DNA of 62,190 nt, filler included, from Dugesia japonica (lineage: Eukaryota), in the NCBI GenBank assembly GCA_001938525.1. It is 5 parts of 5 records of this genome, joined end to end, with 100 filler letters (N's around TTAATTAATTAA, not from the genome) between each part and the next. Parts side by side here need not be neighbours in the genome. Positions count along the whole stretch, not along the records: positions 1 to 12,066 come from MQRL01578514.1; 4 more parts are not named here. One strand, 5' to 3'. Below the pieces are notes generated by a model. That model did not search any database. It was not told where the DNA came from and saw nothing but the letters and a program-made list of their open reading frames with translations. Below, piece by piece: positions 1 to 54,706 of this stretch. A program made the position numbers and the translations under genes. Each line of letters starts with the position of its first letter. The first letter of the stretch is position 1.

Positions 1-62
<62 letters not shown>
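1..62. repeat. (TTA)n microsatellite
   Basis: Perfect TTA trinucleotide run at the window start. Confidence 0.95.
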
Positions 63-73
63 TTTAATATTTT

Positions 74-330
74 TGTTGGGGTATTATCTAAGTGGGCTGA
101 TTTTTTGTAATTAAGTCTAGTCTAGGGTGTTCAAATTCTAGGGTGGTCTACCTAGTAAAATCCCGCGAAGAATTTAATCTGATGTCCCCAAAAATCCAGA
201 TCTTTGGAATGGAGCCGTTGACTCGTAATTCAAGTACACACTCGCATTCCTTTGGTTCTGGCTCGTCTTTCATGATACTCGCTTTAATTTATAAGGTATC
301 TTTGACAATGGTGGCTTTCTCAACTATTTG
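74..330 (+). repeat. Dispersed ~250-bp repeat, copy 1 (possible solo LTR starting TGTTGGGG)
   Basis: Aligns by eye with 3790-4009 (-), 39700-39938 (-) and 42402-42600 (+). Shared blocks are TGTTGGGG, GAAGAATTTAATCTG..GTCCCCAAAAAT and CTCGCATTCCTTTGGT..ATACTCGCTT; copy 2 is more diverged. Confidence 0.8.
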
Positions 331-1579
331 CTAGAAATGACATTATTGCGGGTCTTGTTTAGTATCATTAACGGTAATCCCCCTATTATTACTTATTTGA
401 AGGTAGGAATTATTATTTTAAGTCCCAGGGGCATCATGAAAGATGCGTAACGATCTTATTCGGGTTTACTAAGAGTGGTTACGAAAGTTTAACTCAGTTA
501 ATTTATCTAAGACCTTTGGTCTGATAATTAATACTTTATGAGCGCTAATATGCAGCGATCGGGACACTCTCATTTAAATGATGATTAAAGTCATCTGATA
601 CGGTATCCGGTTTGCTCATACTTTACTACACACATTCGTTTAAGTCGTCACAATAATGATAACTTTTTTAAGAATCCTTTTATTTGTTAATTACTCATGA
701 AATAACTCCTTATTGTATTAATTTAGATAAATATTCAAAGATTCCAAACTTCAAAATCAGATGTATTAAATCAAAATTCTAAAACAAAGAACACTTTTTA
801 TATTGTACTGTTGTAAATATATGTATATATATTTAAACCAGTCCCTTGATTTTCAAGGTACTAGAATTGCACGGTTTCGCTTTTAAACAATTTTTAAATC
901 ACAACAAAAAAATCAGTCTTATTCTTATAGTTTTATTTTATGTCATTTATCAGTATCATATTGATCGACGTACTCTTTTAAAATTCGTTCAAAGTACAAA
1001 AAGCACGCTTTCCAAATTTCATTAGCAAATATTAAGATTGAGGCATTATGCGTGAAGGAGTAGAAAATTTAAAGTCTTTTGGTGATGTTTGATTATACGT
1101 AAGAAGGACAATTATTATAAGGAGCGAAATTCAATTTTCTTTAAAAAAATAACCTCCAAATATCCAAATTTAAATAAATAAAAAAATAAAATGGTAACAA
1201 TAGAATGATGTTGTTCTTAAATCATCAAAACATAAAAAATAAAAATTTATTTTATATTCAAATTTGCAGTCTTATAATTTTTTATAATTTTGTTCATTAT
1301 TTATAAAGTTTTTCATTATTTATAAATTTATTAATCAATTGTAAATTTAGTTATTATTTATAAATTTGACCATTATTGAAAAATTAAAATTTTCCTTTAT
1401 TTAAATTAATCGATTTGACGCTATTATTTTTTAAATTTATTTTCGAATTTCTCTCCTTAAATACAATCAATCATCGTCATCATTTGTTCTGATTGAATTA
1501 TAACAACTGTTAAAAAGTCGGTTTTTTAATTTTAAAAATTTATTTCGTAATAATACTTCAACTTTATTACAGTCCTATA

Positions 1580-3390
1580 ATGTCATCAAAAAGAACACTC
1601 ATGGAAAGGAAGACAATCAGTTTGGGAAAAAAATTGAAATTTTAAACAAACTAAAATCTGGAAAGGCTCAACATCTGTAGCAAAAGAAAATGGGATGAAC
1701 GAGGCAACTGTTAGAACAATAAAGCAAATGGAAGATTCCATACAAAAAAAATTGTAGCTATCGGAACTACTTTAAACGTATTTGTGAAAATCTGAGAGAT
1801 CAGCCGGAGGATTTAAAGCAGCTAAGAATATGGTGACTTTACGTCTTTATAGTAACCCATCGGGTGATCGTTTTTTGAAACCTTCACTGATTAATAGAAC
1901 TCAAAAGCCGCGTGTAATAAAAGGAAAAGATTTAGAAAATTTACTTGTATATTGGCGTTTCAACAAAAAAGCCTTGATGACGTGCGCGATCTTTGGGGAA
2001 TGGTTTCATAATTGTTTTGTACCTGAAGTGAAAAGTTATTTACAAGAAAAAACCTTGAGTTCAAAGTTCTATTAATCCTAGACAATTTACCAAGTCATCC
2101 AATAGACTTGCAACATCCAAATGTACAAATTGAGATGCCTCCTAATACAACTTCACTAATTCAACCTCAAGATCAAGAGATAATTTCTAAATGTAAGGCT
2201 TACTATATTGGAAGAAGCTTCGCAAATAGTTTAGAAAATTAGATGATAATCCTTCATTTACTTGACCGGTGTATTTGTTATCTTATTACCATTCTAATTA
2301 TATCAAGTTTGATACATTTTCATTAGAAAATGGTACCAAAAATCCATTTTTAAAATATTTTTTAAAAGTTCTTTGTTCTTTCTTATATCATTTTCTCTTA
2401 AAGTATGCATTTTCTCATACTTATCTTTAACAAAATGTATAGGTAGATTTAAATAGTATCAAAACCAAGTCTAAATGACAAAAATTGGAGTCTGCGCGAA
2501 CCTTTTAAACATTAACATTTTAAATCTTTAATAACTCAATACCTGTACGTCAGATTGAAATTCCGAGATAGCAGTTATGTTCATCAAACTTTTACGAGTC
2601 CAACAGTACCAGGTTTACCATCATAACAGGCATGTACTTAATTTAATCTTGATTTTAAAAGTGGTGATTTTAGGTGGTTCAGTTCTGACATGTCTCACTA
2701 CTGAAGTGTGGAAAATTTTACGATTTTGAATTGTATAACAAATGTCGTTGCAACCGTCGCCTAAATAAAAAAATCACATTAAGGTTTTGCTGGAAAGTCA
2801 TATGGTCTGTAATAATAGTCAAAAGAAACGTGAACACAGCTGAAAATGTTTATACAAATATTATAGACATAGCTCATTCTATTGGAGACGAAGGATTTAA
2901 TGATTTGGATATTCTAGATATTGAAGAGTTATTTNAGGATAAGGAAATTTCAGATGCGGATCTAGTGGAGTTAGTACTACAAAGGGTTCCCAAAGACAAT
3001 TCTTTAAAGACAATAATAGTTTTGAATGTGAGAATAATAAAGCCGGACATTTTGCCGAAAAAGTAATTGATGAAGGTCTTTGACTTGGTAGAGCTAACAT
3101 ATTTTTTGAACACAGATTCTGATACCAAGAGAGCATTGAAATTTCAAAGAACAATAAGAAATACGCTCAGTCAATATGAAGAAATTTATAAGAATACCAG
3201 CGAAAGTAAGCAAATGTTAATAACTGATTTCGTGTCATCTAAAAGTAAATCAACTTTTAGTAATAAAGTAGGAAATGTAGTCAACAACTCAATTAGTGAA
3301 GGTGCACCTATGAAGAACGTTGATGAATTTGATGTTAATGACTCGGATAGTGACGTTACACCATATTATCAAAGAAAAAATGAATTATAG
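1580..3390 (+). mobile_element. Tigger/pogo (TIGD/CENP-B-like) transposase pseudogene with an internal insertion
   Basis: Frameshifted translation gives an N-terminal HTH (RKTISL.KK.EILNKLKSG..VAKENGMNEATVRTI) and a DDE_1 core (YWRFNKKALMT..FGEWFHNCFVPEVK; LLILDNLPSHP; PPNTTSLIQPQDQEII), followed by an acidic C-terminal tail. Coding similarity breaks at about 2265 and resumes at about 2696. Confidence 0.85.
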
Positions 3391-3789
3391 TTTTACACAG
3401 CTCAAAAATATATTAAAAGCCGATTTATAATTCTGTTTTTTTAAGTTTGAGTTGTTACAAAGACTATTTGTATTTAAATTCTTTTACTGTTTAATTTATT
3501 TCGAAGATTGTATTTTTTTACATTTTGTATAGTTTTTATTTGAAAGTAATTTTGCTAATTTATGTTTACGTTTTTTATTTTAAAAAATGTTTTGAATTAG
3601 AATAGAATGAACTCCCACCCTTTATTCTTCAGCATCTATCTCATTTTACACTATTATAATGAACATATCTTCAACTTTCATTGGTCTTCTTTAAATCGAT
3701 TTACACGTGGTTCGGGTAGTAACATTTAATGAATGTAGCTTAACACAACTAAACATTTTTTAAAAATTATTTATCATTGTAGCAGCAGT

Positions 3790-4009
3790 ATAGTTGACAT
3801 TATTAGAATAGTAGCCAAGAAAGCCAGAGACAAAGCAAGTATCATTAAGATCCATACCAAAGAAATGCGAGCAAGCACTCTAACTACGGGTTGCGACTTC
3901 TTTACGAAAAACAAGATCAAGAACACCGTGTTTAATTTAACACTGGATTTTACTAAATGAATTCACGTAAAAATAAATGAAATTTAACTCCATACATGGA
4001 ACCCCAACA
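3790..4009 (-). repeat. Dispersed ~250-bp repeat, copy 2 (diverged)
   Basis: Reverse complement reads TGTTGGGG...CTCGCATTTCTTTGGTATGG..ATGATACTTGCTTT..TGGCTTTCT, matching copy 1. Confidence 0.7.
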
Positions 4010-4473
4010 AATTAATTACCATTTGTGGTTGTATTTACTATCTTGTTGTTTCGTCACAATCTGTTACTAGCTAAGTGCTTTCGTATTTTAAATTTCCACC
4101 TGTCGTTATATTTGCAACCCGTCTAACTATTTTTGGGATATACCGTAGTGACGGTAGAGGTAAGAATACAAAAACCATAAAAATGTCATGTAACTTGATA
4201 ACTGGTTATTGAAAATAAATCAAACATTCATTGTATTATAAAAATATTTAGTTCATCATAAATGAAATGTTATAAAATTAATCCAACTTACTTCCAATCG
4301 TAAAAATAGAAAAAGTTTTATGTGACGCTTGATTTGATAATTAAAAGAAACTTATTTACACAATAATAGTTTTAGAGTTAGTTTAATATTACTTTCTTTA
4401 AATGAATAAAATGAATCATTTGTTAATTATATATTTTTCAACCGTTCAACTGTTTATCGAATAATTTTTAAAA

Positions 4474-5011
4474 ATGGATAATGACAGTGTGACTAGAGAT
4501 ATTTTTAATGCACTAGATACAGACAAAAAAGGTTTTGTTGTTAAGCAACACTTTATTAATCAGATGACTGAATATCTTTCTCAGACAGAAGTTTCTTGTA
4601 CAGATTATGTAAGATAATAAAGCATTAAAATTTTTACTGTTATTTTAGGCATTAAATAAACTTAACTTGGTAAATAAGTATCCAGATATGATAGATTACG
4701 AAAATTTCAAAAGATTTTATGAAGATTTAATGGAATCTAAAAGTTATTAAATTTAAATTTTATTGTTACATTTTAATTGGCTTATAATTTAGAATTTTCA
4801 AAATATTCAAATACACTTTCTTTATCGGATGAAGAGTTTATAAATCTTTTTAAAATTAATTGTATTTAAATTAAATTAATTTAAGAGGTCTTATTGATAA
4901 TGAATCTGATTCTGATATATATGAAAGTGAACTGGGACCTTGCATGGATATAAACTCTTCAAGATCAACATTACATGGGAGTGTGATAAATTTAATCGAT
5001 TTTCCTCTCAA
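4474..5011 (+). CDS. Spliced EF-hand-containing protein (first four exons; 3' end not resolved)
   Basis: Exons 4474-4608, 4649-4742, 4793-4835 and 4886-5011 join in frame through GT..AG introns of 40, 50 and 50 nt. Translation: MDNDSVTRDIFNALDTDKKGFVVKQHFINQMTEYLSQTEVSCTDY/ALNKLNLVNKYPDMIDYENFKRFYEDLMESK/KFSKYSNTLSLSDE/EGLIDNESDSDIYESELGPCMD... The motif IFNALDTDKKGFV is an EF-hand-like loop. Confidence 0.75.
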
Positions 5012-5559
5012 GTATTATTATTATTTAATGCCACTATACTACTATTTTTTAAAATTATTTCAACTTTTTAAATATACAGTATTGCTTAATTTTACAGAAA
5101 ATATTTCAAATGCTTAAAATTAGAATTTATACGGGTCAAGTATTGAAAGACAAAATAATATTAATGAGTTTTCTGAGTCTGAACTAATAGATAAAAATAT
5201 CTGTATAAAACAACTTACTAAAGTATAGTAAAGATAAATTTTACGTATTAGCTGATAGCGGGTGTGAATTTACTTGTATAATATAAATAATTCATAAAGA
5301 TGTTAACTGAATGTTCTTGTAAAATTTTAAATTTACTTTATAACATAATGCTCGTAATGTATTGAAAATAATGATCGTGGAAATGAAATTAATTCTCTTA
5401 TTATTCTGCTAGAAATGTTTTTTTTCACTTTCACTAACCGAAATTAAAAATCTTTTAATTAAAAGTGTTTCATTCTAAGAATAAGAAAATTATATTTACA
5501 TTTTTTAATATTTGAAGTTTATGTATAAACAAATATCACGTTCTTGATACCACATTTTA

Positions 5560-6984
5560 ATATTTTTAAAGTTCATTCTAATGATTTACTATCAAAAAGG
5601 TTTGTTCGACTGAGTAAGTATAAAAGTACAAGAGTCAACTAAGTTATAGATTCATGTAAAAATTTTCGAAATTACAATGGAATTATTTTCTCTAGAATTA
5701 TGAAAGGCAAATCCACTTGCCAAGATTTACTTGATACATTAGTGAGATGTGTTGAGAAAAATGGCTTATTCTAGAACAAAATGGCAAGCATCACAACAGA
5801 TAATGCTAAAGCGTTTAGTGGTAAAGATATCGGTATGATTAGGCTTCTTAAACAAATTGAGAAACTAATTTACTGACAGTGATATAATGTCTTTTCATTG
5901 CATTTTACATCAGGAGAGTCTTCGTAAGTCACGTGATTGATACCGTTGTAAGTGTGGTTAACTTAATCGTATCAAGGGCACTTTATCACCGATAATTGAA
6001 ATCTTTTCTTGAGAACGTTGAAGCGGAGTATGATGATGTAATTACTACAGCATTATGAGATGGTTGAGCATGGGAAAATATATAAAAAGGTTCTGGGTAT
6101 TGCAAGATGAAATTCTTTGTATTTTGGACTAAAAAATCATGAATTTCCAATAAAAATCAAATTTGAAAGAGTTCTTTGCACTTGACATACTGAACCATAT
6201 AAAATTATTTAAAGCAAAACTAGGATTATTTATAAGGCAAGGAGAAGAGGGTAAATTTGGCCATTTTATAGTATTAAGTAAAGAAACTACCAAAAAATCT
6301 TTCTGCTAAGTTTACAAAATTAACATAAAAATTATGAAGAGATTACAGAAATTTAAAAAATGGAACCGTTCTTTAATTTGTTGACATCCAATAACTGCGG
6401 ATATTTACCCAGTCCCACTGTAGCTTCAACTCGATCTTTTAGAAATACAATCGGATCATATTTTTAAATAAAAGTTTACTTCTTTATTATTGGTTGATTT
6501 CTACAAATACTTGGCTTTGGAAAAATTTCCGTGTATTAAATGATTTGCTCCCAAAATTTTCTCTATATTTGGTTCTACTTATATTTGTGAGTAAGGTTTT
6601 TCTTGTTTCAAGATTAGTAAAAGTAGATATAGATGTTCTTTGGCAGAAACGAACTTACAAGCCGTAATGAGAATCTAAACGAGCAATCTAACTCCAATTT
6701 TAAAAACTTTTTAGAAAAATCTGATAATGTTTATTCATGCCATTAAATCATTTGTAGTCAACTTTGTTTTTCATTGGTATTAGTTTTAAGGGTTCTGTTA
6801 ATTAATTTTTTTAAATAAAATTTTTACTTTTTCGATACATTTCCGCCAATTCTTTCAATATTAATTTTTTATAACTTTTGAAAAATGCATATTCTATCGG
6901 TACTTAAATTTTTTTATGTGCGGCTCGCGACTTTTCTCTGAAATCACAATGTGACTCGCAAGTCAAAACAATTCCCCACCCCTG
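5560..6984 (+). mobile_element. hAT transposon relic (GTF2IRD2/SPIN/Buster-like)
   Basis: Degenerate motifs FHCILHQESL, RWLSMGK and FGSTYICE*GFSCFKISKSRYRCSL..NLQAVMRI (hAT dimerisation domain). Right end ...TTCCCCACCCCTG corresponds to a CAGGGGTGGGGAA hAT-type TIR. The left boundary is approximate. Confidence 0.85.
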
Positions 6985-7799
6985 ACTTAGTTGATTGGGT
7001 TCTTTTATACTTACTCATTTGAACGCGTCGCTTTTATGGTCACCTTTTTGATAGGATATCCATTCTAATCTATCATATTTCATATTCTTGAAATAACATC
7101 AATCTTCAATAAGATGAAGCGATTGTTCTTTGTTCTGGGATAAAGTGTTATTCCTTCTGTTTAAAAAGATTTTTTTTAAGGAAAAATCAATTATAACAAA
7201 GATTTATAAATAAATATTTATAATGTTTAAATAAAAAATATTTAAATATATTTGATAGAATTAAAGTATAGAAACGAAATTGAAGTTNNNNNNNNNNAAA
7301 TTGAAGTTAAAACCATGTAAACAAAATGTTAATAGGTACAAAGGTGTTATTATTATTGGATGACTAGTACGAATCGCTTTGTGGATAAATTCATAAAGCT
7401 AGAAAAAATGATTCAAAAACTANNNNNNNNNNNNNNNNNNNNNNNNNNNNNNNNNNNNNNNNNNNNNNNNNNNNNNNNNNNNNNNNNNNNNNNNNNNNNN
7501 NNNNNNATGATCATTGTTCATGTAATTTTCAAGAATAGTCATGTAACAACTGCAATCTTAAATCAAAGCAGTACTTTGTACATCCGTTTCATTTACATAA
7601 CTTTTAGAAAAATTAAAGTTACGAGAATAAATGAAGAATATATCTCTATACAGATAGAATGCATCAGTATAATATATAACTAAATTCACTCTAATAGCAT
7701 TAGGAAGCATTTTTAAATAAGTTCAATGTAAAATATTTAATTGGCATGGATTAAAATTTATCAAAGGAATACATTTATGTGTATATCCGAATATCAACC

Positions 7800-8307
7800 G
7801 AGTCGCCTTACGGGATATCTTCAATAGAATAAATAATGAAGTAAGAAAATTTCTACATCAATTTGCAAAAATGATATTTTACCACAAAACTATAAACAAT
7901 TACAAAAGAACAAGAAAGACATATGATGTAAAAATATATATGACTACACCATGGAATGTTGCAATCATAACTCTATTGAAAAACAGTGATTATCGTGAAT
8001 CATATACTCAAGACTTTGAAAATGATTACACATCATACATACAATCAATAGTTAGAAATACGGGGTTATATCTAATTAAGAATATGAATAACGGAATAAC
8101 ACTTGAAGATTTTATCACTATATATCCCTTCTTTACTTTCGTGCTCGCTCCGATTTTGGTATTAATCAAAGCCAATTGCCACAACAAGGAAATTGGAAAT
8201 TAGATATAAAGTTTATACGTACATTTCTTACATCAGTATATGTTATCATTTATGAAGTATTCTCAAATGAGATACAAATTACAACCAAGAGAACAATCTT
8301 GGTTTAA
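7800..8307 (+). pseudogene. Polinton/Maverick major capsid protein, C-terminal fragment
   Basis: With one frameshift at about 8152: QDFENDYTSYIQSIVRNTGLY..NNGITLEDFITIYPFFTFVLAP/DFGINQSQLPQQGNWKLDIKF..TSVYVIIYEVFSNEIQITTKRTILV*. This matches the recalled Maverick MCP C-terminal pattern (PDF...Y..LF..TG...G.I...F...F.FDLTPD...G.L.L...F...VIVY.EF.N.I.I...R). Confidence 0.65.
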
Positions 8308-8335
8308 ACAATCCTAGTTCAAACATACTCAGTGC

Positions 8336-9849
8336 CAAGAAGATCATATTAGAATACAAAAGCAGTTATCTCTATTCATCAAGTCATTTTGATAGTAATT
8401 TGATTGATGAAATGTTTCAAATAATAAAAATTAATACTGTACCAAAAACCCAATAATCTATCTGATTAAAAACTAAAAATAATATTGCTCAAGAAAAACT
8501 TATAAGTAGAAATTGCAAGTTATTCTAACACCTACAATGTCTTATATTAAGTTGTCCAAAAAGTTCTTTTGGTTTTATACTTTGAAATAAAAAGCAAAAA
8601 GAAAATGTTTATTATAAAAGATATTAGGCATTATTATCATTAATTTGTTATTATCTCTCAGTCAATAGCATCATTCCCTTTTCATAAAATTTGTGATTTC
8701 GTTAAGAAAAAAATACTTTAAGGTACGTTTTGATACTGTAATCTAAGGTTAAGGCTTCTCCAGCTATAGTTTTTTATAGACCGTAATAGAGAGTAGTTTG
8801 ATGGTGCCATATTGACTATATGGTGGCTGTGGCAGTAAATTCCAGCCAAGTTCTAGTAACTTTTGCTAAGTCTTCAATGCTATGTGATATTTTACGTTGT
8901 CGTGAAGGAAAACAACACCTCCATGATTTAAGAATTTGAACGTTTCTGCAGCGAGGAATTCTTTAATTTGCTTAATTGCGGATTGTAAACATTCGAGTCA
9001 ATTTTAGTGTTAACTGGTAAGAGTTCAAAATATGAATTTCCTTTATAATCCCACGAAATCGACTCATGACCTTTTCTGGTAAATATTAGCCTTTCGTGTT
9101 GTTTGAGTTGACTTACAGGGATGGAACCTTAATAATTTCTGTTTAACATTATTTTATACAATTTATTTTCCATAACTAGTTGAGTTTCTTCAAAAATGTA
9201 TTGGCTTGATTACGTCTTAAGAGCATATCGCAGATTTTGATTNNNNNNNNNNNNNNNNNNNNNNNNNNNNNNNNNNNNNNNNNNNNNNNNNNNNNNNNNN
9301 NNNNNNNNNATAACTTAGAGTTATTTTCGATAATTTTAACTTCCTTAACGCCACGTGTCTATCAACTTCACTTGATCTCCAGAAGTTTACAATGGCCTAC
9401 CAAATATTTTGAAAAATTCTCAAAAATAAACCAAATTTGCTAGTACGATCTGTTATTGCCAAAAAACCGTATACATCGCATACTTTTTTATACGTATTTG
9501 TAGCTGATTTGTCTTTTTCTAATAAAAATTTTTACTTGATAATTTTAAAATGTCTAAAATTTACTTTTTTATTGTTCATTTGAAAATAACGCCTAACTAA
9601 TGCAAAGAAGCCAAATTAACTAATATATTAAAAAAAAGTTAGTATTACTCATTATTATTAAAAATAAAATTAGTTTCAGGTTCATTACCTTCATAAATAT
9701 TTAAAACTGTTATTAAACCCGTTTTCTGGTAAAAACCGATTGAATATCTGGACAGCCTAATAAAATCAAAGATAAGTGTAAATAATAAACAATACTACGT
9801 AAACTGGCATGAATATCAAGATCCTACTTAAATATTAGCATCTCAATTA
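8336..9849 (+). pseudogene. Polinton/Maverick-type integrase C-terminus with chromodomain, split by a mariner
   Basis: 8336-8546 gives EDHIRIQKQLSLFIKSF / SNLIDEMFQIIKINT / PIIYLIKN / TYK*KLQVI (cf. GD.VRISK...FEKGY..NW..E.F.I...P..Y.L.D...FY..ELQ.V). After the mariner, 9787-9849 gives KQYYVNWHEYQDPT*ILASQL, which is chromodomain-like. Confidence 0.6.
8547..9760 (-). mobile_element. mariner element, degenerate but near full length (~1.2 kb)
   Basis: TA on both flanks; imperfect TIRs TTAAGTTGTCCAAAAAGTTC and TTAGGCTGTCCAGATATTC. The minus strand gives ELGWNLLPQPPYS.. (decayed HPPYSPDLAP motif). Confidence 0.8.
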
Positions 9850-9873
9850 ATTATATTAATTAAATTAATAATT

Positions 9874-9999
9874 TTTTATAATTTACCAAGTCATAGTTGT
9901 CCACTTATTCATTCATATAATAATGATAGTGAATTTATTGTTGAGTATCAAAATCCTATTTACTTGGAAAGACAATGGGAACTAGCTTGTTGTATTCCC
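9874..9999 (+). pseudogene. Polinton/Maverick minor capsid (penton-like) N-terminal fragment
   Basis: FYNLPSHSCPLIHSYNNDSEFIVEYQNPIYLERQWELAC matches the recalled pattern FY..LPS.S.....N..S.F......PI.L...WE.A, directly after the integrase chromodomain. Confidence 0.6.
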
Positions 10000-10060
10000 C
10001 TTTTAAATACAGGGTAAAAAGTCTATAGACAATTTCAAATATTTATTTGAATTTTATTAA

Positions 10061-12066
10061 CCCTAAAAAGCACAACTATTTTACTAACGTTAGCGAACAA
10101 CAGTGCCTCTGAGTCTCTTTGCTATGAAAAAACCACATTTTAATAATAATTGAACACAATTCATTTATTATTAGCTTTTAAATAATTGAGGAATTCATTT
10201 ATATCAATTTGAAACAAAAATTATTTATAAAAAAATTGACTTTTAAGTAACAAAATATCCTTTACATATAATATAGTTTAACAGACTATTATTTATTTTT
10301 TTTCTCATGACGAACAATTTATTGTTGTTGTAGAGTGTTGACTGCATACATTTTTCTGGAAATTGTCGCAGCGCTGCTTCTGCATTTTTCATTTTGCGCA
10401 TGGACACAAATGGCACCGTTTTCTTTTCCGGACGTTTTCATTTGAACTGGAAGTTGAAGNNNNNNNNNNNNNNNNNNNNNNNNNNNNNNNNNNNNNNNNN
10501 NNNNNNNNNACTGGAAGTTGAAGCTATAATAGAAGAACTTTCAGTAGTTGAAGCTTCGAGATAGCTGTTTATTACAGTTTTGGGCGATCGGTGTAGGTTA
10601 TTATTATTTTGCCTCTTCCTTATATGAGGTTCAATTAGAGATTCGGCCAATGCTCACAGGAATAAATTTCGTCTGTTGGATTTCTGTTGGTTCCAATGCT
10701 GGAAAGTTTTAGTCCACAGCACATATCCAGCAATTCCAGCGGCATCTAGCATATTCATAAAAAAAGCTAATGGCCAACGATTTGTTTTTCTCTTTACCAT
10801 ATATTCGTGAATAAGCTGAGCAAATGTATTAACACCTCCTTTGGTTAAGTCATAATAATTATTTATTTCCGACAGCTTTACCATTTTTTTCGGTCATTTT
10901 GTNNNNGTGGTGCATTGTTGACAAAGAAATTATTGCTTTACCTGGCTTGGGTACATGCGACGCAATAGTAATATTTTTTTGAAATCCGAATAAAGTTGTA
11001 CGTGTTTCTCGGTTTTTGTTTGGCTGAAATTCGGGTGGAATACAGACCTTATTTTTACGCAGAGTACCTACTAATGTTAGACCATTAGACAAAATATTTT
11101 GTGCTAATTCTTTACTTGTAAAGTAATTGTCCATAGTTACATTGCGATTTGTCCCAAAATATGGTGAGCACAGTTTTTCAACGACCTCTCTTCCAAGTCC
11201 AACCGCTCTGGTGTTGCCTACTTTTCCTGTATATAGAATTCCGCCGAGTGGATAGACTGTTTTGGAATCACATAACCACCACATTTTTATTCCATATTTG
11301 TCGGGCTTAGATGGCATGTATTGAATAAAAAAACATCGGCTGCGACAGGACATAAGCTGCTCATCTACAACAATATTTTCTCCAGGTATATAATATTTTC
11401 CAAAATTATGGTTTACCATTTCCCAAATAGATCTGATTGGCGCTAATTTATNNNNNNNNNNNNNNNNNNTTCTGGTATCTTTATCATCAAAACGAATAAA
11501 TCTTAGTATTTCCATAAATCTTCGAACACCCATTGTTGCTTTGATAATTATAATTCCGTATAAATTATCCCAAAATATTCGGTAGTTTTGAGCGTTGGAT
11601 TTCATATGTCCAGCTTAATTAGTAATCCAAAAAATGAATGCAGCTCATCTATTTCTATTGGTTTCCACTTTTTTGATTGACCATATATGGTTACGGCTTC
11701 TTTGTTGGTATATTTTAAAATCTCCTCACATACGGTGTTATCAATAAACATTTTGAAGCTATCCCAGATGNNNNNNNNNNNNNNNNNNNNNNNNNNNNNN
11801 NNNNNNNNNNNNNNNNNNNNNNNNNNNNNNNNNNACTTTGCTCTGGATCTTCCATATGGTTTTGCCATCCACTCAGTTCCATCTTTTCCTTTATAAATTT
11901 GTTTACATATTGGATTTTCGAACTGTTCATTTTCCTCTTTTGATATTTCATCTCATAGATGTGACGCCTCTATCACAAACTCGGCTTCAGATTCTGATGC
12001 TTCATAAGCTTGATTTTCAACTAAATCCATTTCATCATCAGTCCACTCCTCTAAAATTTGTTCCAG
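10061..12066 (-). mobile_element. piggyBac (PGBD4-like) transposon, inactive
   Basis: TTAA followed by a CCC terminus at 10057-10063. Frameshifted ORFs carry IVVDEQL, YMPSKPDKYGIK, NVTMDNYFTS, GTLRKNK and RKTNRWP, plus a C-terminal Cys-rich tail (RCHLCP). The third catalytic motif GGVD..DQ reads GGVNTFAQ. The other end is lost in the contig gap. Confidence 0.93.
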
Positions 12067-12166
12067 NNNNNNNNNNNNNNNNNNNNNNNNNNNNNNNNNN
12101 NNNNNNNNNNTTAATTAATTAANNNNNNNNNNNNNNNNNNNNNNNNNNNNNNNNNNNNNNNNNNNN
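12067..12166. other. Artificial contig linker (N44-TTAATTAATTAA-N44)
   Basis: A six-frame-stop 12-mer embedded in Ns. The same construct occurs four times in the window. Confidence 0.95.
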
Positions 12167-13295
12167 AACCATTAAAATTTATCATATTATTTTCAAAAAA
12201 ACCATTTAAATTAGTTATAATATAATTTAAAAGTATTCATGTTGATTAGTCTGAAATAAAATTAAAATATGTGTAATCAAATAAATGTTGTCAATCGAAT
12301 CTCATTAAATGACGAAATAGTATGTGCATCTTGATCATATACTGTCGATTACTCAATCGATGCACGTACACATTTCCTGTTATTACACATTAGAAAGTTC
12401 GTTAATTATTNAGTTTAGTAAAACAAAATTAAATTCATATATTTATATCATAAATTTTTAATAATTAATTGTCAGCCATACTTTTAGATAATTCAATAAA
12501 ACAAAATATTGTATTGTATATAATTACCACTATTAATACTAATTCTAAAATACAAACAAAAGAATTGTTCCTATGATTTCATTTTTGTTTTTTGATGTTG
12601 CCTATTCTTTCAACGCAGTGTTTCTTTTGTAATTTCTTTTATAAAAAAAANNNNNNNNNNNNNNNNNNNNNNNNNNNNNNNNNNNNNNNNNNNNNNNNNN
12701 NNNNNNNNNNNNNNNNNNNNNNNNTCTAAAGGTTATCACTGAAAAAGTAATAATCTATTTTTTAATATCATAAATATAAAAAATATAAATATTTTTTTGT
12801 TTATTTAAATCTTATAAACGAAATTTATTAAATTTATAATATTAAATAGTTTTATAAATTAATCAATGTTAGTTAATATTTGATTATATTTCAATTTTTG
12901 TTTTTCATGCATACAAATACAAAGCAAAGAAATTTTAAATTTTATATGTTTGATAATATCAATTCTATATTTCAAAAAAAAACGATAAAAATATTATTTT
13001 TTAATGATCTTTTAAATAAAAAATTTAACATATTTACTTTACATATTTCTTTTGAATAATTACAACATAGAAGTCATGATTATTTTCTAGAATTTCTACG
13101 GCTAAATCTTTAGAGAATAAATTCAAGTACAACATACAAATAAATTCCTTCAGAAAATTCAAAAGAATTTCAAAATAAAACTTCGACATCAAAATTGTCA
13201 TTTAGATTTGAAAACGAAATAATAGAAGTTCACAATTAAATAGTAAATGAAAATAACTTAGATTATTTCAATTACTGGATTATCAAAAGAGTTTA

Positions 13296-14229
13296 ATAAG
13301 TTGACCGGTTAATCATATAGATTTGAAATCAAGGTAAACACGATAAATTCAAANNNNNNNNNNNNNNNNNNNNNNNNNNNNNNNNNNNNNNNNNNNNNNN
13401 NNNNNNNNNNNNNNNNNNNNNNNNNNNNNNNNNNNNNNNNNNNNNNNNNNNNNNNNNNNNNNNNNNNNNNNNNNNNNNNNNNNNNNNNNNNNNNNNNNNN
13501 NNNNNTAACTGCGCCACCAATTCGTATAAATAGTAATTTGATGGAGCAAAGTCAGGTGAGTACAACAGGTTGGTTAATACTTTCCGGCCAAGAACCTTTA
13601 ACGTTAGTATTGACGTTTCATTTGTAGAAATCTATGAATTTTTGCGTTTCAGAAAAAATATCAACTTTTCTTCTCCTGTTACGATTCGATGCAAAAATAA
13701 CATTTTTGGTGCCGTTGAAACCGCAGTTTACTGATAACTACTGGGTTTTCCTTTTTTCATTTTTCTTGGTGTAAAAAATTTCCTATTGTGTGTAAACGAT
13801 TGAAAACGGTTTCTCGAGCGACCTTTATTATTTTTGCCAGTTGTTTTTGGTTTGACATACATTTTCATTCAATAGTGCTTATAATTGTTGATCTTGAAAC
13901 TTTTTAATTGACTCGAACGTTCTCTGTCTGTTACTTGAAAATCATAATTTTAAAGCGTTTACAAATATCTTGTGATGGAGCATGTTGCCCATGGGCTTTC
14001 CAAATAATTTGGTATCTATCATCAGCACTTTTCTTCAAAATAAAATGAGTTTTGACATTGATAACTCTAAAATCTTTTATATTAATAACAGCACTTGAGA
14101 TAATTTGAGATATACTAGTATTAATAATAATCAATAAAAGAAAATAGTATACAAATCAAACCTAATATATTAGCATTTATGTAACTACATCAATTGTAGA
14201 AAATACGCATGATTAACCGATACACCTAG
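13296..14229 (-). mobile_element. mariner relic
   Basis: YSPDFAPSNYYL motif and HRIVTGEEK. TA-flanked imperfect TIRs share CGGTTAATCAT. Confidence 0.8.
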
Positions 14230-14416
14230 TAAAAGAATGATTGCAATAACATATATTTAAGGTTATAATAGCAAGCTAAGTAAGACAAGCATAAAAAAAT
14301 AATTAATAAATTTTAAAAGGGTATCAGAATCTTTTTGGGTTTAGCCAGTTACTGTTAATGTCAGACTTAAAACTTGAATTCAGCATTTTTATTCTATTCT
14401 TCAATAAATCTATTAC

Positions 14417-14417
<1 letters not shown>

Positions 14418-14481
<64 letters not shown>

Positions 14482-14625
14482 NNNNNNNNNNNNNNNNNNN
14501 NNNNNNNNNNNNNNNNNNNNNNNNNNNNNNNNNNNNNNNNNNNNNNNNNNNNNNNNNNNNNNNNNNNNNNNNNNNNNNNNNNNNNNNNNNNNNNNNNNNN
14601 NNNNNNTATTATTATTATTATTATT
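14418..14625. repeat. (TAA)n/(TTA)n microsatellite spanning a gap
   Basis: TAA run, then an N gap, then a TTA run. Confidence 0.9.
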
Positions 14626-15079
14626 GTATTATTATTATGTGATTTGTTTTGCAAAAATATAAATAAAAAAAATATTATTTGACTATTACAAATAATAATT
14701 AATAAAGAAAAAAATATTTATATTCAATTATATGTTTCATTCAAGCTAGAAAACATTCTTATTATAAGAAAAAGTATAGTCAGACTATTCGTTTAAACTT
14801 CAGTCATTGTCAAAAAAATCTTTCATTTTACCATACAAATTCAATTATTAATATAAATAAATCTCATCAAAGCATGAAAGAACTTGTTATACGAACATCG
14901 ACCTATAGAAAGGAAAGCACACCAGAATTAATTCATTTGATGAGTGTTGTAGACATTTTTTCATCTATATCGACACAGCAGGTCTTTTGGTTTATTTTCA
15001 TTACATAATTAAAAATCAATATTAGCCTATCATGAGGTGGTGATGAATTAATTATCTAAGTAATTATATACTCCATTAC

Positions 15080-15253
15080 CCATCGTATGTCCACGGGCCA
15101 AATTTCAGTTTGCAACATTGCCGATCGAATGGGAAATATTTTATTCGCACTGGACATGTGGATTTGAAAATAGCCATCGGGTGCCATTCAACTGTACCGT
15201 CGAATCTGATAATAGCATCACATTCTCGTCTTTCTTCCATTCTTTCGTCCGCA
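15080..15253 (-). CDS. Internal exon of a nicotinic acetylcholine receptor-family (Cys-loop) subunit
   Basis: ADERMEERRECDAIIRFDGTVEWHPMAIFKSTCPVRIKYFPFDRQCCKLKFGPWTYDG contains C-x13-C with FPFD and the loop-B WTYDG. Acceptor ...CCCTGCAG| and donor |GTAATG on the minus strand. Confidence 0.92.
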
Positions 15254-15749
15254 CTGCAGGGAATCAAAAGTTTTAAATTACTTTTACTGTAATTTATTAA
15301 TAGAAAAAAANNNNNNNNNNNNNNNNNNNNNNNNNNNNNNNNNNNNNNNNNNNNNNNNNNNNNNTTTTCTATTAATTTATATTTTTTCATAAATTATTTA
15401 AATTTTATATTATTTAAAAATTTATATAAAAGTAAAATTATGAAAAATATTTAATGTTAAAAGTAAAAATAAATTTTTTTTAATCATTAAAAAGTTCTTG
15501 AAGATTAGTTTACCGATTAAATGCAATTTGGTTTATTGTAATGAGGTCAACATTGGGTCGTAGATTTTGATTTTAAATGAATATAAATAAATATTAATAA
15601 TTCAACATTTTATAAATAATATTAAACAGGCTTTAAAAAATTTTAGAAAAATACTAAAATATAAAAATAAAAAAAGATAAAATTACAATTTCATTTTATC
15701 TACCGGTGCTAAATCTACAAATCTTCTGGCAAAGTCAAATATGAAATCA

Positions 15750-16200
15750 ATTNATCTCGAACAATTTACAATTTTCTAAAACAAGTGCAGCATGCTTCAA
15801 TGTTATCTTTAAACCACACAAAGTATTATGCATGCGTATATTTTTTTCTGTTAATTTTTCTTTAATTCCTTTTTATGTTACTTCAGAATGGTTTTCAACA
15901 ATTTTNNNNNNNNNNNNNNNNNNNNNNNNNNNNNNNNNNNNNNNNNNNNNNNNNNTCGATAAATTTCTTGATTTCATTGTTTATTTTTTTTCGATGAGTT
16001 TCTATCCTCTTCTATATTATAATCCCTTTTTTTCGCAACTATATTTTATACACAGTTCCTCTGCTGCCTGTTTTATAGATTTACCATTTGCAACAAAATT
16101 TTATAGGTTTACTTTATTTGATTTTTCAACGTTTTTGTAGAGTTCACCACTTTGCCTTATTGGATTGATGCTATCGTCATTATGAGAATTCATATTGGCA
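15750..16200 (-). mobile_element. Possible Tc1/IS630-like HTH transposase fragment
   Basis: Broken minus-strand translation ANGKSIKQAAEELCIKYS..NSSKKINNEIKKFI..IVENHSEVT*KGIKEKL resembles a paired HTH region. Confidence 0.35.
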
Positions 16201-17599
16201 TTGAAAAAAAATTCAGAATGTAAATACAAATGTGTAAATTAAAACAATTTAAAAATGTTTAATATTTATAAAAAAAATGTTTAAAATATTTTATAAATAT
16301 GTTGAAATAATGAACTAAATGAAATGGTAATTTGATTTTAGATTGCCATTTTTTTTTGAAATGCATATTTATTTTTAATATAATAAAAAAATAAAATAAT
16401 AAAATAAAATATACATAAAATTAGAAATAAATATTATTTTGAATATAAATGGTCGGAAAAAGATATTAATTTATAAATTATGATTAAATCAAAATATTAA
16501 TTATTACTATTTCAGGTAAATTAATTACAATTATACATTTGTAATTATTGATAAATTAAAATCATAAAAAGTCAATTCCAGAAGAATGCAAAGTCGAAAT
16601 ATTGAAATGTTATCAAATACCAAAAAAAAACAAAATTTTGATCGAATCTTTTATTTTAAATGTATTCTGAAAAACGATCAATGGTTATGTCCAACAAATA
16701 TTCTCGCTATAATTGCAATTGTAAAAAATCCTTTCCTCAAAAAAATGAAATATTATTTTTACAAATGTTGTAATGTTATACGAAATTATTTTTATTTTAA
16801 GTTTTAAATGAAAAATCATTTTTTCATCAATCAGAAATCAAAAAAATTTTCAATAACTTATACAAATAATTAACGTTAAATATTTGGTAAATTTAAGTTA
16901 ATCGAAACGTTATGTGATATAAATTTTGTTTTAAACTGTGTTTTAATATATTTTTTTATATTTATTTAATAAACAAACATTTAAATTGGATAAATAATTA
17001 TGAGGAATAATTAAGAAAGAATTAAAATTTATATTTAAGCACATATTTTGTTTTTAAATTTAATTAGAAATGCTGTCTTTTTAATTGAAAATATCGTGAT
17101 GTATTTTAAGTAGATATTTTAGAATAATTAGTTTGAATTATTTGAAAATGAAATGTTTTAAAAGTGATATGAGAAAATAGAAATTTAAACTGTTTCCTCA
17201 ATTAAAAGAAAAGATTACCNNNNNNNNNNNNNNNNNNNNNNNNNNNNNNNNNNNNNNTAAAAGAAGGATTTGAGAAAAATATATAAATAAAAATAAAAAT
17301 TAAAAAATTAAAATAAAATTCTCAATACTAACCTTAAAACAATAAAATTGTTATTGAATTTAACATTGTTTCTCTTTGATTATTTGTGAACCTCCTAAAA
17401 TGCGTGGCATTTCGTTAAATAGAAATTACTATGGTCAACTAAAATGAGATTTCAATTTTAAGTGATCGTTTAGACCAGCAATTCCCAATCTTTTTTTAAT
17501 CTAAGTCCCATTTAAGTATCTTTAAAATTAAAATTGCTCCCGTAATGTTTTGTATTGTTTTTATTGGGTTACAAGATAAAACTTTGTCAGCAAAAAAAT

Positions 17600-17990
17600 T
17601 AAATATAATTCATGGTAGAAATGCTGTCTGTATAAGAATGATCCGAAATGGTTCAAAATAATAATTGTTTAAATAATAGTTATTAATAATTTTAAATGAT
17701 GGACAAAGCAGTATCTTTGATAAACCACGTTTAGAACCTTGTGCTTAGTTTGATAACGACGCGTCTAAGTCTCTTGTAAATGCTGAGCTGGATCTTACGG
17801 TGGATGATATTGTAGACAGAATTAATTCGTCTCGTAGCACCATGTAATGAAAATAAAAAATAGGCGAAGTATCCAAGTTTCAAAGGTAAATGCCACATAA
17901 GTGATTGGCAGTTACCTTCAGCAATGAATAAGCATTTATTCCATCTAAGTGATTCCTTGATAAATAATGTGATTCGAGATCAAACATTGT
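17600..17990 (+). mobile_element. mariner N-terminal fragment
   Basis: DKPRLEPCA*FDNDASKSLVNAELDLTVDDIVDRINSSRST..PHK resembles the mariner HTH-linker region. Confidence 0.55.
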
Positions 17991-17999
17991 CTTGCAATA

Positions 18000-18800
18000 A
18001 ATTAAGTGGCATCAATTGTTATTTATAACGATCAGCGTCGATTGTTTTACAAGGTCTCAATATATATGAGATGCATAATAAAGTTTTCTTTATATAAACA
18101 TAGCGCTTTGCAATTGAAGTTGCTGGTTAATCTGAATAAACCCGCAATTATTTTGCAATTTTGGTTATCAACATAAATCTATTTTTGTCGCCTGTAACTA
18201 TGCGATGCTGTCGTTCTAATAAAATTTTACAAATTGATTTCCATTTTTCCATCATCCTTTCAGTCAGTCCATGTGGAATCCATTTTCTTTCGATTTGTGT
18301 CTTCCCCATATTGTGAAATAACATCTTGAGAAACATGTAACTGTTTAGCTAGTTCTTGCTGTATTTGCTTATTATCTCCAGCTAATATGGCTTTCATTTC
18401 CGCATCTTAAATTTCTTTTGGTTTACCTGAGCATTCTTTATCTTTTATATCAAAATCGTCATTTCTTAATAATTTAAAACACTATTTACATGTGTCTTGG
18501 GATTTACCAAGGCCACCATATACTTCCGAAAATTGACGATAGCTTTCTACTGAAGTGTCCTTTAGGTTGAATAACAACATCAATGAATACCGCAAATGTT
18601 ATTTTGTTGGCTCATATCTTGATATCTTCAATGGCAAATAATATGAAATTTTCACTGCTACAATTTATTGCAATTTCAATTTATTGCATGCTAGATTCAG
18701 GGACCCTATTCATCTTTCAGTACTAGTAAGTAGATAAAAGACCACTGGGTCACCTACGCTCCAGGTAGAAATTATTTTGCATCAACTAATCGGATTACAT
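18000..18800 (-). mobile_element. mariner fragment
   Basis: KWIPHGLTERMMEKWKSICKILLERQHRIVTGDK contains the WVPHEL and RIVTGDEK motifs. Boundaries are approximate. Confidence 0.8.
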
Positions 18801-19320
18801 TAAGTCCATTACGTAATAGATATAAAGTGCTGTACAAATTTATATAGTTTCTTATAAATTCGATCAATTTTCCCATTAAATTAACTCATTTTTACGAAAT
18901 TTCGTTTTTATAATTTTTTAATAAAATTAACAGAAATTTAATTTTTAATTTAAATTAAAAGATTTTTATGAAATTTCTATTTAAATTAGGCAAAATTTAT
19001 GATGTTATCATATTACCCACCACTTGACGCGGAATTTAACACTGATCAATACTATCATAAATAATCATCAATAAATAAATAGGGAAAACATTAAAATGAA
19101 CAAGTGTAGTTAAGTAAATTTCATTTGAGCAATAACGCTTCCCGAGCAATGTTAACATTAATATTCAGTTGTCTCCCAGGAAATATTAACATTAATATTA
19201 AAATGTTCTAGAATAATAAAAACATATACATAAGCAAATTNCAAAAAATAAAATAGCATAAATAATACTATACTGTGCTGTGTAATGTACTTTACTTTAT
19301 ATGTATGGATTGTAACTTTA

Positions 19321-19522
19321 CTGTAATGAGTTTTAATTTTTTATATAGTGGTTTACAATTTTATAAATAACTTTTAATGTGTTAAGATATATGTTAGATT
19401 GAAATGTCTATCATTATTGATTATAATTTTACTGTGTTGGCTTATAGATTTAGTATGATAGTTTATTTATACTTATGAAATCTGTCTATATTTGTACAAA
19501 GTTTACATATTGTTTAGTGTAT
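19321..19522 (+). repeat. T-rich repeat, inverted partner of 23061-23280
   Basis: Shares TATAGTGGTTTACAA, ATTTTACTGTGTT and GTACAAA.TTTACATATTGTTTAGTGTAT with the reverse complement of 23061-23280. Confidence 0.75.
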
Positions 19523-19899
19523 GTCTTTTGAAATTTGTAAGTAAATTAATGGAATTGATAAAGTATTTAATGGAATTATTGTATAAATTATTGTACTAAA
19601 AAACATATATATATTGATAATGATATAAGTCTTAATGAAAATTGTGTATGACTATTACATGTGTTTTAATCAAATGATTGTATTGGTTTATTCAGTGTAT
19701 TTGTTTTATTATATGTAATGGCTTATTATTTTTATTTTGTGCATGGTTTGGTTTGTTTTTTGTACAAAGGAATAATTTCAACCAATAGAAATTAAGGTAA
19801 ATTAGTTTTATTAATGATTGATCCTTATTTGTAATTGTTATATTACAAGCATTATAGTTTTAATTTGAAATAAAAACTATGTGTGAAATTAATTTTTGT

Positions 19900-22190: not shown

Positions 22191-22625
22191 GAAACCCATA
22201 GAAAACCATAAAACGTGATAAAACTCTCTGTTACCTTATAAAACCTCAAAACTCAATGAAATCCTTATAAAACCTTATAAGTCCATAGAAAATTCATTAT
22301 GATCAAATTAGACTACATAGAGCTCAATAGAAACTCCATGACATCCAATAGATAATTTATAGAAAACCTACAAAACCATATTAGAAACTTATAAAATATT
22401 GTGTTTTACAAAGTTTTATAGGGCTTTATTTGTTTGATATAGGGCATTATAAAGCTTTATAGTATTTCTATAAGGATTCTTAAAGATTTATAGTATTATC
22501 ACAGGGTTTCATTCGGTTGTATTTGGTTTAATAGCGTATCTATGGGATCTTTAAAGGGTTTTATTAGATTTTTCAGAATTTATATTTTATCTATAGCGTA
22601 TCATAACGTTTTATAGGGTTTTACA
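22190..22625. repeat. Foldback-like imperfect palindrome built of ~10-bp units
   Basis: Left arm has AAACCyTATA-like units and right arm has TATAGGGTTT-like units, with the centre near 22400. Confidence 0.7.
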
Positions 22626-28332: not shown

Positions 28333-28589
28333 TATTAAGAATATTCAAACAAATTAACTTTATTGAAATATTGAAAATAAAAGTACAGCAACTTCTATCT
28401 ATGAAATTTCAACATTCGCATTGCAATTACTTTTATTTTTATTTTTATGCTCAGCAATATTACTACCACCACCAAAACGATTATGCTCTTGAACACTTGG
28501 TGGTGGTAGCATTATTGTTGAGCATAAAAATAAAAAAAAAGTAATTGCAATTCGAATGTTGAAATTTCAAATTTTAAAATTTTGTCTAG

Positions 28590-48659: not shown

Positions 48660-49636
48660 AAATTGTTACTAAATTGGAAAGATTGGACGGCATACATACC
48701 AGTAGAGGGTCAAGCAATTCAGTTTAACATGAAACATTGGAGGATGGAAACGGCACAGGAATGCCAAGGAAAACATCACAAGNNNNNNNNNNNNNNNNNN
48801 NNNNNNNNNNNNTTTGAAATAAGACATTTGCGTAACATTCTAATCTACTATATAGTCGATAACCATCACCAAAAAGGATTGACAATGATAAGAAAAGCAA
48901 GTGAAAGCTTAAAAATCTGCCAGCAGAATGAGTACACATACACTATCCAATTTTGGAAAAATGTGAAAAAGGAAACAACAGACGAAAGAAAAAAGCGGAT
49001 ATTATTGGAGGAAATAAGTATAGCCATAAGACCGAGGAAAAGGGTTAAACGTCGTAACTATATATCGTAACTACAGCAAAACCATATTTGCATTCCAAGA
49101 AGATGATGTTATGCATTTGGTAGGATTGGAAGGGAATTAATTTTTACGAGTTACTTCCAAGTTGTCAGATTATCAATGTAGATAGGTATTGTTATCGGCT
49201 AGAAAAATTGAAGGAGTCGACGCTGAAGAAACGTCCAGAAATGGCGAACAGAAAATATGTAGTATATCAAAACAACGCTAAACCACATACTGGTTTGTCA
49301 ACCAAACAAAAATTAAATGATCTTAGCTGGGGAAAATGCAGCATCCATCGTACTCACCAGATCTAGCATCTTTAGATTTCTATCTATTCCGATCGCTTCA
49401 AAATAGTTTGAACACTCAAGGATTTCATTCAACGAATGAGTGTTTAGAGAATTTCTTTTTTGAAAAGCCCCAACGTTTTTATGAAGCTGGCATAATGAGC
49501 TTACGACAAAGTTGGCAACATATAATAAATAGGCAACAGTAGTCAATATTTNTTTGAATAAAATAAACATTTATATGTTATAACTTTGACTTTAAATTTT
49601 GATGAAAATAATTCAAAACTTATTACACAACACAAT
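48660..49636 (+). mobile_element. mariner transposase relic
   Basis: KKMMLCIW*DWKG.NFYELLP, NNAKPH and HPSYSPDLASLDFYLFRSLQNSL. Right end ...AACTTATTACACAACACAA followed by TA. Confidence 0.88.
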
Positions 49637-52393: not shown

Positions 52394-54706
52394 AAATTAG
52401 AAAAGGAGGTGTTACAGTCTTCGAATAATCATTAAATAATAATTCTTTCTCAGACCGCATAGTATAAAGAGTCGTGCCAGTTTGTATGCTTTCACAAAGA
52501 GGTTCATGTTTCTAAAACGCAGTCTTATTCCTGAACCCATTCAAGTAATTCGGACACNAAGTAGATTGAATTTGTNTCTCATTTTTTTAACATCATTAAA
52601 TTTAAATTCCTTACAGTTGTGAAGTATATGAACTATATTTTCAATGTGTTTTTTGAATTTTCTATGTAATAAATAATTTAAATATACAATTAAGTAATTC
52701 CAATAATTCTTGTTAATTATATTTGAACATTTTTATAACATATTTTTATTATAAAAAATGTAATTATTTTAAAATTAACACCTGGTTATTTTAAAACTTA
52801 AAAAATAATGGTAACTTTTTAAAATAAATAATAGAACACTATTTTTTGAAATATTTATTAAGTGCGATCAATTTCGACGGAATAATCTTTATCATCAGAC
52901 AATTAAAGAATATTAAAACAAACTATTTACAAATGACTATATAATTTCAATTATGCAATTTAAATAAATAAATAAATCTTATGAGTGGATTTAATAATTA
53001 CTAGTAGAGTGATGTGTGAAGCTTTATTGATAAGAGTATTAAATCCTAAAGTTATTGTTTAGTGGACGAATTCAACCTCGCTATTAAATTATTTGATTGA
53101 GATTACATAATTGAGAAGTGTTGTAACAGGTGTATGTGTGTAGCAAAGCGATAACTANNNNNNNNNNNNNNNNNNNNNNNNNNNNAAATAAAAAATTCAG
53201 TCTTTAATTGGTTAATATTACAATTTGGAAACTTATAATTCATTAAATTTGAATTTGAAAATTATTATTTTATATTAAAAAACCTTTTTAATAAAATTAA
53301 ATAAGTAGAAATTAATTTCATATAATTATAAGAAAAAAGTAAATTTAAATAACTAGATATTATAACACGATTTTTTAATTTGATATACACATATACACTT
53401 AAGATAACAATATTGGTTACACGGCGAATTTCATTATTTTAGAAAACATCAAACTAATGTGTTTTGTGTTCCTTATAATGAGTTAATGTAAGAAATGTGT
53501 CAATTAATTATTTTATTGATCAGAAATTTGACACTGATTATTAATTATTTTTTATTGTTTGTTTAGATATTGGAGTTTTTTTGAAGTTGTATTAATAATA
53601 AAATTTAATAGATTTGTTATAAAATAATGTAAATTTCTTTTAAATCTTTGATAAAGATTAATTAAATAAAAATTATATTTTAATAATAATTAAATTTTAT
53701 TGTAAGCGATTTTATTGTAAGTGTAATATTTTCTTATTGAAAAACTTTTGCGAAAATGCTTTCAGAATTTTCTACCAGTTAATATGTTATGTTATTGACG
53801 AAGTTGTATATATAATTGGATTTTTATAATATTCAAAATATTTAATAAAATAATTATTATTAAAAACTCAATTTTTTTTAAAAAATGTATTAATTTTTAA
53901 AAATGATCTTTAAATTTCATCAACAATATAAAAAATAAATTATTAAAAGTTTTCGAATTTTAATAAATTTAATGTGAAAAGAAAATTTTGCAAGTAAAAA
54001 ATCGAAAATTGAATAACCGCTGCAGTGTTTATATTTCGTTTCAAAATTCTTATTATTATAATAAATAGATTTTTAGAACAAAAGGTTTGTTTAAACAAAT
54101 TACATTGATAAATTTATTAATCACCAAATCTAAAAATTCGATTTACAAGCGATGATTTAATAAAATAGAATTAAGAGTAATAATTCTGAAAAATAAATGT
54201 TTCTAATCTATTAGAAAATAAAAAAANNNNNNNNNNNNNNNNNNNNNNNNNNNNNNNNNNNNNNNNNNNNNNNNNNNNNNNNNNNNNNNNNNNNNNNNNN
54301 NNNNNNNNNNNNNNNNNNNNNNNNNNNNNNNNNNNNNNNNNNNNNNNNNNNNNNNNNNNNNNNNNNNNNNNNNNNNNNNNNNNNNNNNNNNNNNNNNNNN
54401 NNNNNNNNNNNNNNNNNNNNNNNNNNNNNNNNNNNNNNNTTATTGCTTATCAATTGTTTATGGAGATTAATTATTTATTTATTTTTAAAATAATTTGGAA
54501 ATGATTACAGCAAATATTTTCACATGAATTTTCTACAGTTAATTTTATAATAAATTTATAGATTGATATTTTTAAATATATAAAAAAAAACAAAATGACT
54601 TATTAAATGTGTTCAATGTTTTCTAAAAAAATACAAATATAAACAAAAAAATTGTTTAATTAATATTGAATAATAAAGGTTATATATAAAATTTTTGATA
54701 ATAAAT

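Follow-up and report, generated by a model that had tools for sequence, protein, structure and literature searches.

Which element gave rise to three degenerate coding pieces lying side by side on one strand of a planarian scaffold, and by which route did the end of a capsid gene come to stand in front of the tail of an integrase gene? The locus is contained in the first of five scaffolds that make up the stretch of Dugesia japonica DNA analysed here (62,190 nucleotides, GenBank assembly GCA_001938525.1; hereafter, the window). The window is AT-rich throughout (16–33% G+C per kb) and dense with transposon debris, and its scaffolds are joined by identical 100-base linkers (44 N, 12 bases, 44 N) at 12067, 25168, 39572 and 52294, across which the neighbours are probably not linked in the genome.

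Judged by sequence comparison, the locus is a dead remnant of about 0.8 kb comprising pieces of three Maverick/Polinton genes—the end of the major capsid gene, the tail of the integrase gene and the start of the minor capsid gene—all of which are frameshifted or truncated; the relic now likely has neither a protein product nor a function. A preliminary description had proposed the same three genes, and this proposal is borne out piece by piece: every peptide it quoted is found on the plus strand, and profiles built from related loci match the capsid, integrase and minor capsid pieces above reversed or shuffled controls. The features concerned, in window coordinates, are as follows.

7721..7951, plus strand: open stretch of 77 codons sharing the reading frame of the capsid piece, but not capsid; without homologue, at single-copy depth
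7952..8307, plus strand: 3' end (about 118 out of 406 codons) of the major capsid gene of a Polinton, own stop codon included (tblastn, profile)
8308..8341, no strand: junction from capsid end to integrase tail; the first ~250–270 integrase codons are absent, catalytic core included; spanned in 3/3 DNA runs
8342..8546, plus strand: C-terminal part of the integrase ahead of its chromodomain, broken by two frameshifts and three in-frame stops (frameshift-tolerant alignment)
8547..9760, minus strand: decayed mariner of roughly 1.2 kb that contains the N gap 9243–9309 (Pfam Transposase_1, E 5e-8 at 8931–9128)
9763..9852, plus strand: chromodomain and C-terminal end of the integrase, interrupted by a single in-frame stop (best relatives 53% identical over 30 aa)
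9872..9990, plus strand: 5' end, some 40 of 350 codons, of a minor capsid (penton, PX) gene, truncated on the right, frameshift near its start (profile, alignment)
10057..11952, minus strand: piggyBac-type element to the right of the relic, with a TTAA-CCC terminus at 10057 and transposase remains at 10862–11952 (DDE_Tnp_1_7, E 1e-45)
52395..52583, minus strand: fragment of a protein-primed Polinton polymerase of the same group (40–43% over 60–63 aa, one stop)

The capsid piece lacks the 5' two-thirds of the gene and carries one frameshift near 8150 as well as two small indels. In its best match, the database protein P0053, residues 288–355 correspond to 7952–8152 (69.6% identity) and residues 356–406 to 8152–8304 (70.6%), with an E value of 4e-38, and a profile from the related loci scores 49 and 39 bits on the piece against 2.3 bits for the best of 21 reversed or shuffled windows. 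When 133 proteins—nearly all of them capsid homologues gathered via the capsid piece 7952–8307 itself—were compared with the window by tblastn, 122 matched, every match lying within 7900–8320. A structure model of P0053, built on 20 relatives (pLDDT 78, pTM 0.80), matches the major capsids of Singapore grouper iridovirus, Sputnik, PBCV-1 and mavirus (best E 1.5e-15, TM 0.60) and, in a viral library, also a bracovirus-borne protein and adomavirus LO7. Since P0053 is about 70% identical to the piece and its model matches solved capsids, the piece is, on this modelling, the 3' third of a double-jelly-roll capsid gene, the predicted fold being that of the relative and not of the fragment. P0001, a further protein of the family, clusters with DJR-like/F54H12.2-like proteins at 0.97, with recognition slightly below the threshold of the tool.

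The preliminary description had let the capsid begin at 7800; this stands for 7952–8307 and falls for 7800–7951, as the match to homologues starts at about 7952. With the frame 7721–8200 as the query, two 407-aa proteins were matched at 64–67% over 42% of the query length, and a search of 1.84 billion representatives returned four matches, none of which begins before residue 67. The upstream part of this frame, 7721–7951, was open in 6 of 20,000 shuffles in a post hoc test, and the summed depth of diverged contigs over 7614–7970 is 12–35, as opposed to 14,000–45,000 over 7971–8208. A candidate homologue of 7721–7951 (best E 0.05 among about 1,300 frames), which proved to be a non-gene frame of the related locus L029, was rejected.

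The relatives of this capsid are numerous and poorly labelled. P0001 as the query retrieved 127 of them, and the 120 listed all bear names no more informative than “hypothetical”. Pfam gave no match for the capsid or minor capsid pieces, NCBIfam none for any of six proteins, and a PDB sequence search with P0001 and a related polymerase returned nothing significant; the many unnamed open-frame members of the clade in public assemblies are missed by Pfam here (0 families for P0001).

For the integrase, placed by the preliminary description at 8336–8546 and 9763–9849, frameshift-tolerant alignment gives scores of 61.0 (8342–8551, model positions 253–323) and 59.2 (9748–9855, model positions 322–357), against maxima of 33.5–40.7 in four controls, which confirms the assignment, with the two halves abutting in the model across the mariner insert. 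The tail is collinear with positions 253–357 of integrases that carry the Pfam domains rve and Chromo. Taken singly, the pieces are weak, scoring 7.4 bits (8288–8539) and 9.1 bits (9751–9852) with a single-frame profile, where the best of 21 controls reaches 0.8, and the chromodomain piece alone stays below the Pfam cut-off (E 0.037). As to the catalytic core, no match to model positions before 244 was found anywhere in the window.

The minor capsid assignment, given previously as 9874–9999, is likewise sustained. The frameshift-tolerant score is 69.9 (controls 24.5–26.8), a single-frame profile match from 9880 onward yields 22.8 bits (best of 21 controls 5.1), and identity to the best relatives is 51% over 35 aa. 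The N-terminal 35–43 aa match a gene that, in the relatives, lies one step ahead of the capsid gene, and the N-terminal motif agrees, by eye, with the published PX alignment. Furthermore, the spacing is that of intact relatives: the distance from the chromodomain to the minor capsid motif is 90 nt in the relic and 71–179 nt in 14 related loci. A single-sequence structure model of a minor capsid relative reached a pLDDT of only 29.8.

Two other transposons lie in or beside the relic. The mariner that separates the integrase halves has terminal inverted repeats that match imperfectly (in 10 of the first 12 nucleotides), TA flanks at 8545–8546 and 9761–9762, and transposase remains on both sides of its N gap; the excision bounds suggested earlier, 8547–9762, are, therefore, correct, comprising one mariner and one copy of the TA flank. 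An empty mariner site was found in none of 15 joints listed out of 121. The piggyBac-type element starts just beyond the end of the minor capsid match.

The remainder of the Maverick gene set was sought across the window. A profile search detected no domain of the packaging ATPase, protease or core-protein genes, all of which are present in related loci, and no protein-primed polymerase was found at the relic locus; within the window, this gene is represented only by the 63-codon piece at 52395–52583, which sits as a separate fragment at the start of another scaffold, four linkers away. Among 908 inverted pairs in positions 1–20000, the 25 longest are simple repeats or gap artefacts; no terminus is expected at the relic, because both of its ends fall inside genes.

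Several other features of the window were recorded. Transposon remains lie at 1788–2239, 10862–11952, 21820–22215, 28493–28810 and 49327–49539; among them, Pfam recognizes a DDE_1 (pogo/Tigger-type) transposase, a piggyBac-type transposase and a zinc-knuckle gag, and an integrase-like and a mariner-like frame were noted by eye alone. An intronless SLC43-type transporter frame at 51171–51797 (plus strand), on a scaffold other than that of the relic, runs into a simple repeat, its sole database match being slc43a-2 of Schmidtea mediterranea (66%), in keeping with a planarian host. A convergent pair of intronless paralogues, each about 520 aa long and bearing a RING finger at its N-terminus, lies at 54677–56257 (plus strand) and 58730–60307 (minus strand); the two are 63% and 50% identical in two blocks, and the ESM Atlas gave no usable match for the RING-finger gene. 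Local duplications across N gaps (43899–44245/44537–44883 and 50680–50830/50941–51079) are possibly assembly artefacts.

Part of 7530–8546 is contained in at least 20 sequencing runs from nine studies of one organism; no RNA run containing the locus is among the indexed runs listed. Three DNA runs were examined as contigs, together with a quarter of the reads of one oligo-dT RNA library. In all three DNA runs, contigs of the locus itself (depth 10–13, at most six differences) span 7997/8030–9025, which covers the capsid-integrase join and the left mariner end, and 9639–9923 or further, which covers the right mariner end, the chromodomain and the minor capsid start. Because single-copy contigs span it in 3/3 DNA runs, the arrangement of the relic is real DNA, in two spanned blocks. 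Diverged contigs add up to depths of 14,000–45,000 over 7971–8208, 4,400–5,900 over 8328–8446 and 4,300–7,600 over 9756–9993, which, while such sums do not equal copy number, points to a large family with many related copies in the same organism. In the RNA library, 196 reads fell on the locus, none of them at 99% identity or above and 14 at 95–99%; as, in addition, 90% continue into unlike sequence, they are assigned to other copies, and no read of the relic copy itself was seen in this quarter-read library.

A scan of metagenomes yielded 69 related loci from 266 pattern matches. They encode an integrase with rve and chromodomain, an A32-like ATPase, a weak match to the adenovirus protease and a large polymerase with B-family motifs. 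Their general gene order runs from integrase through minor capsid and core to major capsid and protease. All 18 loci that contain both genes have the integrase on the upstream side of the capsid gene, the minor capsid gene is upstream in 30 of 33 and downstream in three distant ones, and the protease is the next labelled gene after the capsid in 32 of 32, with 35 loci having none in range. From the integrase tail to the capsid end, 2.9–3.9 kb were measured in seven relatives. Scans of viral contigs gave no confirmed locus, and those of prokaryote genome contigs gave three (L070, L071 and L072), all in bacterial metagenome bins, where their presence is likely binning contamination; L070 and L071 show the same gene order.

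Individual related loci also have peculiarities of their own. A TBP-like gene is carried by L002, L016, L017, L026, L029, L031, L039, L058 and L070 (Pfam TBP, E 2e-18 in L017), L017 additionally has a ubiquitin-conjugating-enzyme gene, and L012, which opens with a frame that looks bacterial by eye and is possibly a chimera, has a dual-specificity phosphatase. Two tandem minor-capsid-like genes lie between the integrase and the core gene in L015, L017, L018 and L057.

The relic, thus, differs from its relatives in order—capsid end, integrase tail, minor capsid start—and several explanations have to be weighed. That an assembly chimera joined the pieces might be suspected from the many N gaps and from the composition of the window, i.e., five scaffolds with a fixed linker; however, independent contigs in 3/3 DNA runs span the join and both mariner ends, the sole unspanned part among the pieces listed being the N gap inside the mariner, and this explanation is extremely improbable. 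Hardly better placed is an origin of the integrase piece from a chromovirus or Ginger element that came to lie beside capsid fragments by chance. Transposon debris fills the window, and the Pfam chromodomain match is generic and weak; however, from model position 253 to 357 the tail runs collinear with Polinton integrases, and, as the best counter-argument, the minor capsid start follows at native spacing. Pfam showed no retrotransposon-specific match in 8271–8453. That two separate fragments met at the junction is a reading to which we give little weight.

The preliminary description had called the element internally deleted. Because the integrase is upstream of the capsid in 18/18 related loci, deletion alone is insufficient to convert their order into that of the relic, unless the gene order differs in this family, and the claim, as it was put, is not supported. 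A simple internal deletion from a native order of major capsid, integrase and minor capsid, unlike that of the relatives, is possible, and we entertain it tentatively: the three pieces adjoin on one strand, sequences from either flank of the junction are abundant in the organism, the loci offer no example of the gene order within the relic's clade, and the minor capsid gene does move, as in the 3/33 distant loci. All retrieved loci that have a full-length capsid lie outside that clade of 18 rows (see below), which tempers the case for a rearrangement. Against such a deletion stand the integrase-first order (18/18), the protease directly after the capsid (32/32), the like order of L070 and L071, and the placement of the penton gene near-upstream of the capsid gene—one gene away or immediately upstream—in the main text of PMC4028283. 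We regard as slightly better than an even bet that the capsid end was joined back by about 3 kb, by head-to-tail duplication or as a re-inserted circle. The parent element would have integrated with the help of the integrase it encoded; either of these two events would then have linked the capsid gene end to a site in the integrase gene some 3 kb upstream; both element ends would have been lost, a mariner would have inserted at a TA within the integrase tail, and point decay would have followed. Microhomology at the junction, a 12/15 direct repeat, was considered and dismissed as chance level, being reached by 17 of 300 shuffles and 28 of 136 real stretches. Unlikely, in turn, is that the join represents an amplified permuted 3-kb non-autonomous planarian module or a planarian Maverick family with a novel gene order; if repeated elsewhere in the genome, the permuted join would show how such elements rearrange. 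Somewhat less likely still is that the join recurs at other loci, as part of a rearranged non-autonomous Maverick derivative that became amplified: the summed depth is high on both sides of the join (1,500–1,900 and 4,400–5,900), yet only the single-copy contig of the locus itself spans the join among the matches listed, and copies with intact order would produce this depth on either side as well.

The capsid was also regarded previously as a possible mark of an undescribed lineage, which is not supported. A quick tree was computed from 150 rows over 131 columns, restricted to capsids of at least 380 aa plus the relic row, whose letter composition is unusual. It places the relic with P0053 and P0040 in a clade of 18 rows (SH-aLRT 96). 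Compared by eye, P0040 and the published capsid Pln1_SM (alignment in supplementary file 3 of PMC4642659) are near twins; Pln1_SM is itself outside the tree and agrees with the relic at about 62 of 90 compared positions (~69%), as counted by hand in the trimmed printed alignment. We read Pln1_SM as the Schmidtea Polinton-1_SM of Table S1 in PMC4028283, and the relic's lineage is, by these comparisons, likely the described Polinton-1_SM clade. Because P0053, the nearest database protein, is only 64% identical to P0040, the relic's family is probably distinct from Polinton-1_SM within this clade; it may be a sister of Polinton-1_SM, and it may coincide with one of the three remaining Schmidtea entries. 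The relic's capsid motif had no match in the main texts searched and was absent from the searched supplements of PMC8502044, PMC10328495 and PMC4028283; at least the first 4 million characters of the PMC8502044 supplement hold neither a planarian name nor the motif. The searched text of PMC8097293, PMC11161782 and PMC3671162 gave no gene order for Polinton-1_SM.

Taken together, we hold with good confidence that the locus is a dead three-gene Maverick remnant with a mariner inside, that it likely stems from a high-copy planarian family within the Polinton-1_SM clade, and that rearrangement, and not deletion alone, likely shaped it. By itself the relic matters little: it is an unremarkable, defunct copy of an already known element type, and its host group is rich in such elements. 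Mavericks are expanded in Dugesia (10.64898/2025.12.11.693146) and are among the main piRNA targets in Schmidtea (PMC8532177), for which four Polintons are catalogued, three of them marked with a major capsid (PMC4028283, Table S1).

The mariner corresponds to known Tc1/mariner (DD34D) elements in its 1.2-kb length, short inverted ends, TA flanks and Transposase_1 match, and differs from an intact mariner in being decayed. With animal Polintons/Mavericks (polintoviruses; adintoviruses as in PMC8502044), the relic shares the double-jelly-roll capsid, the penton-type minor capsid and the chromodomain-bearing rve integrase, and degraded endogenous copies are common among them; unlike complete elements, its locus is devoid of polymerase, ATPase, protease and integrase core, and no termini were recognized there. 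The ATPase and polymerase of the related loci share motifs, by eye, with the Schmidtea sequences ATP-1_SM and POLB1/2_SM. Compared with Polinton-1_SM and Polinton-2_SM of Schmidtea mediterranea, the relic is a broken 0.8-kb remnant that carries its capsid end on the wrong side.
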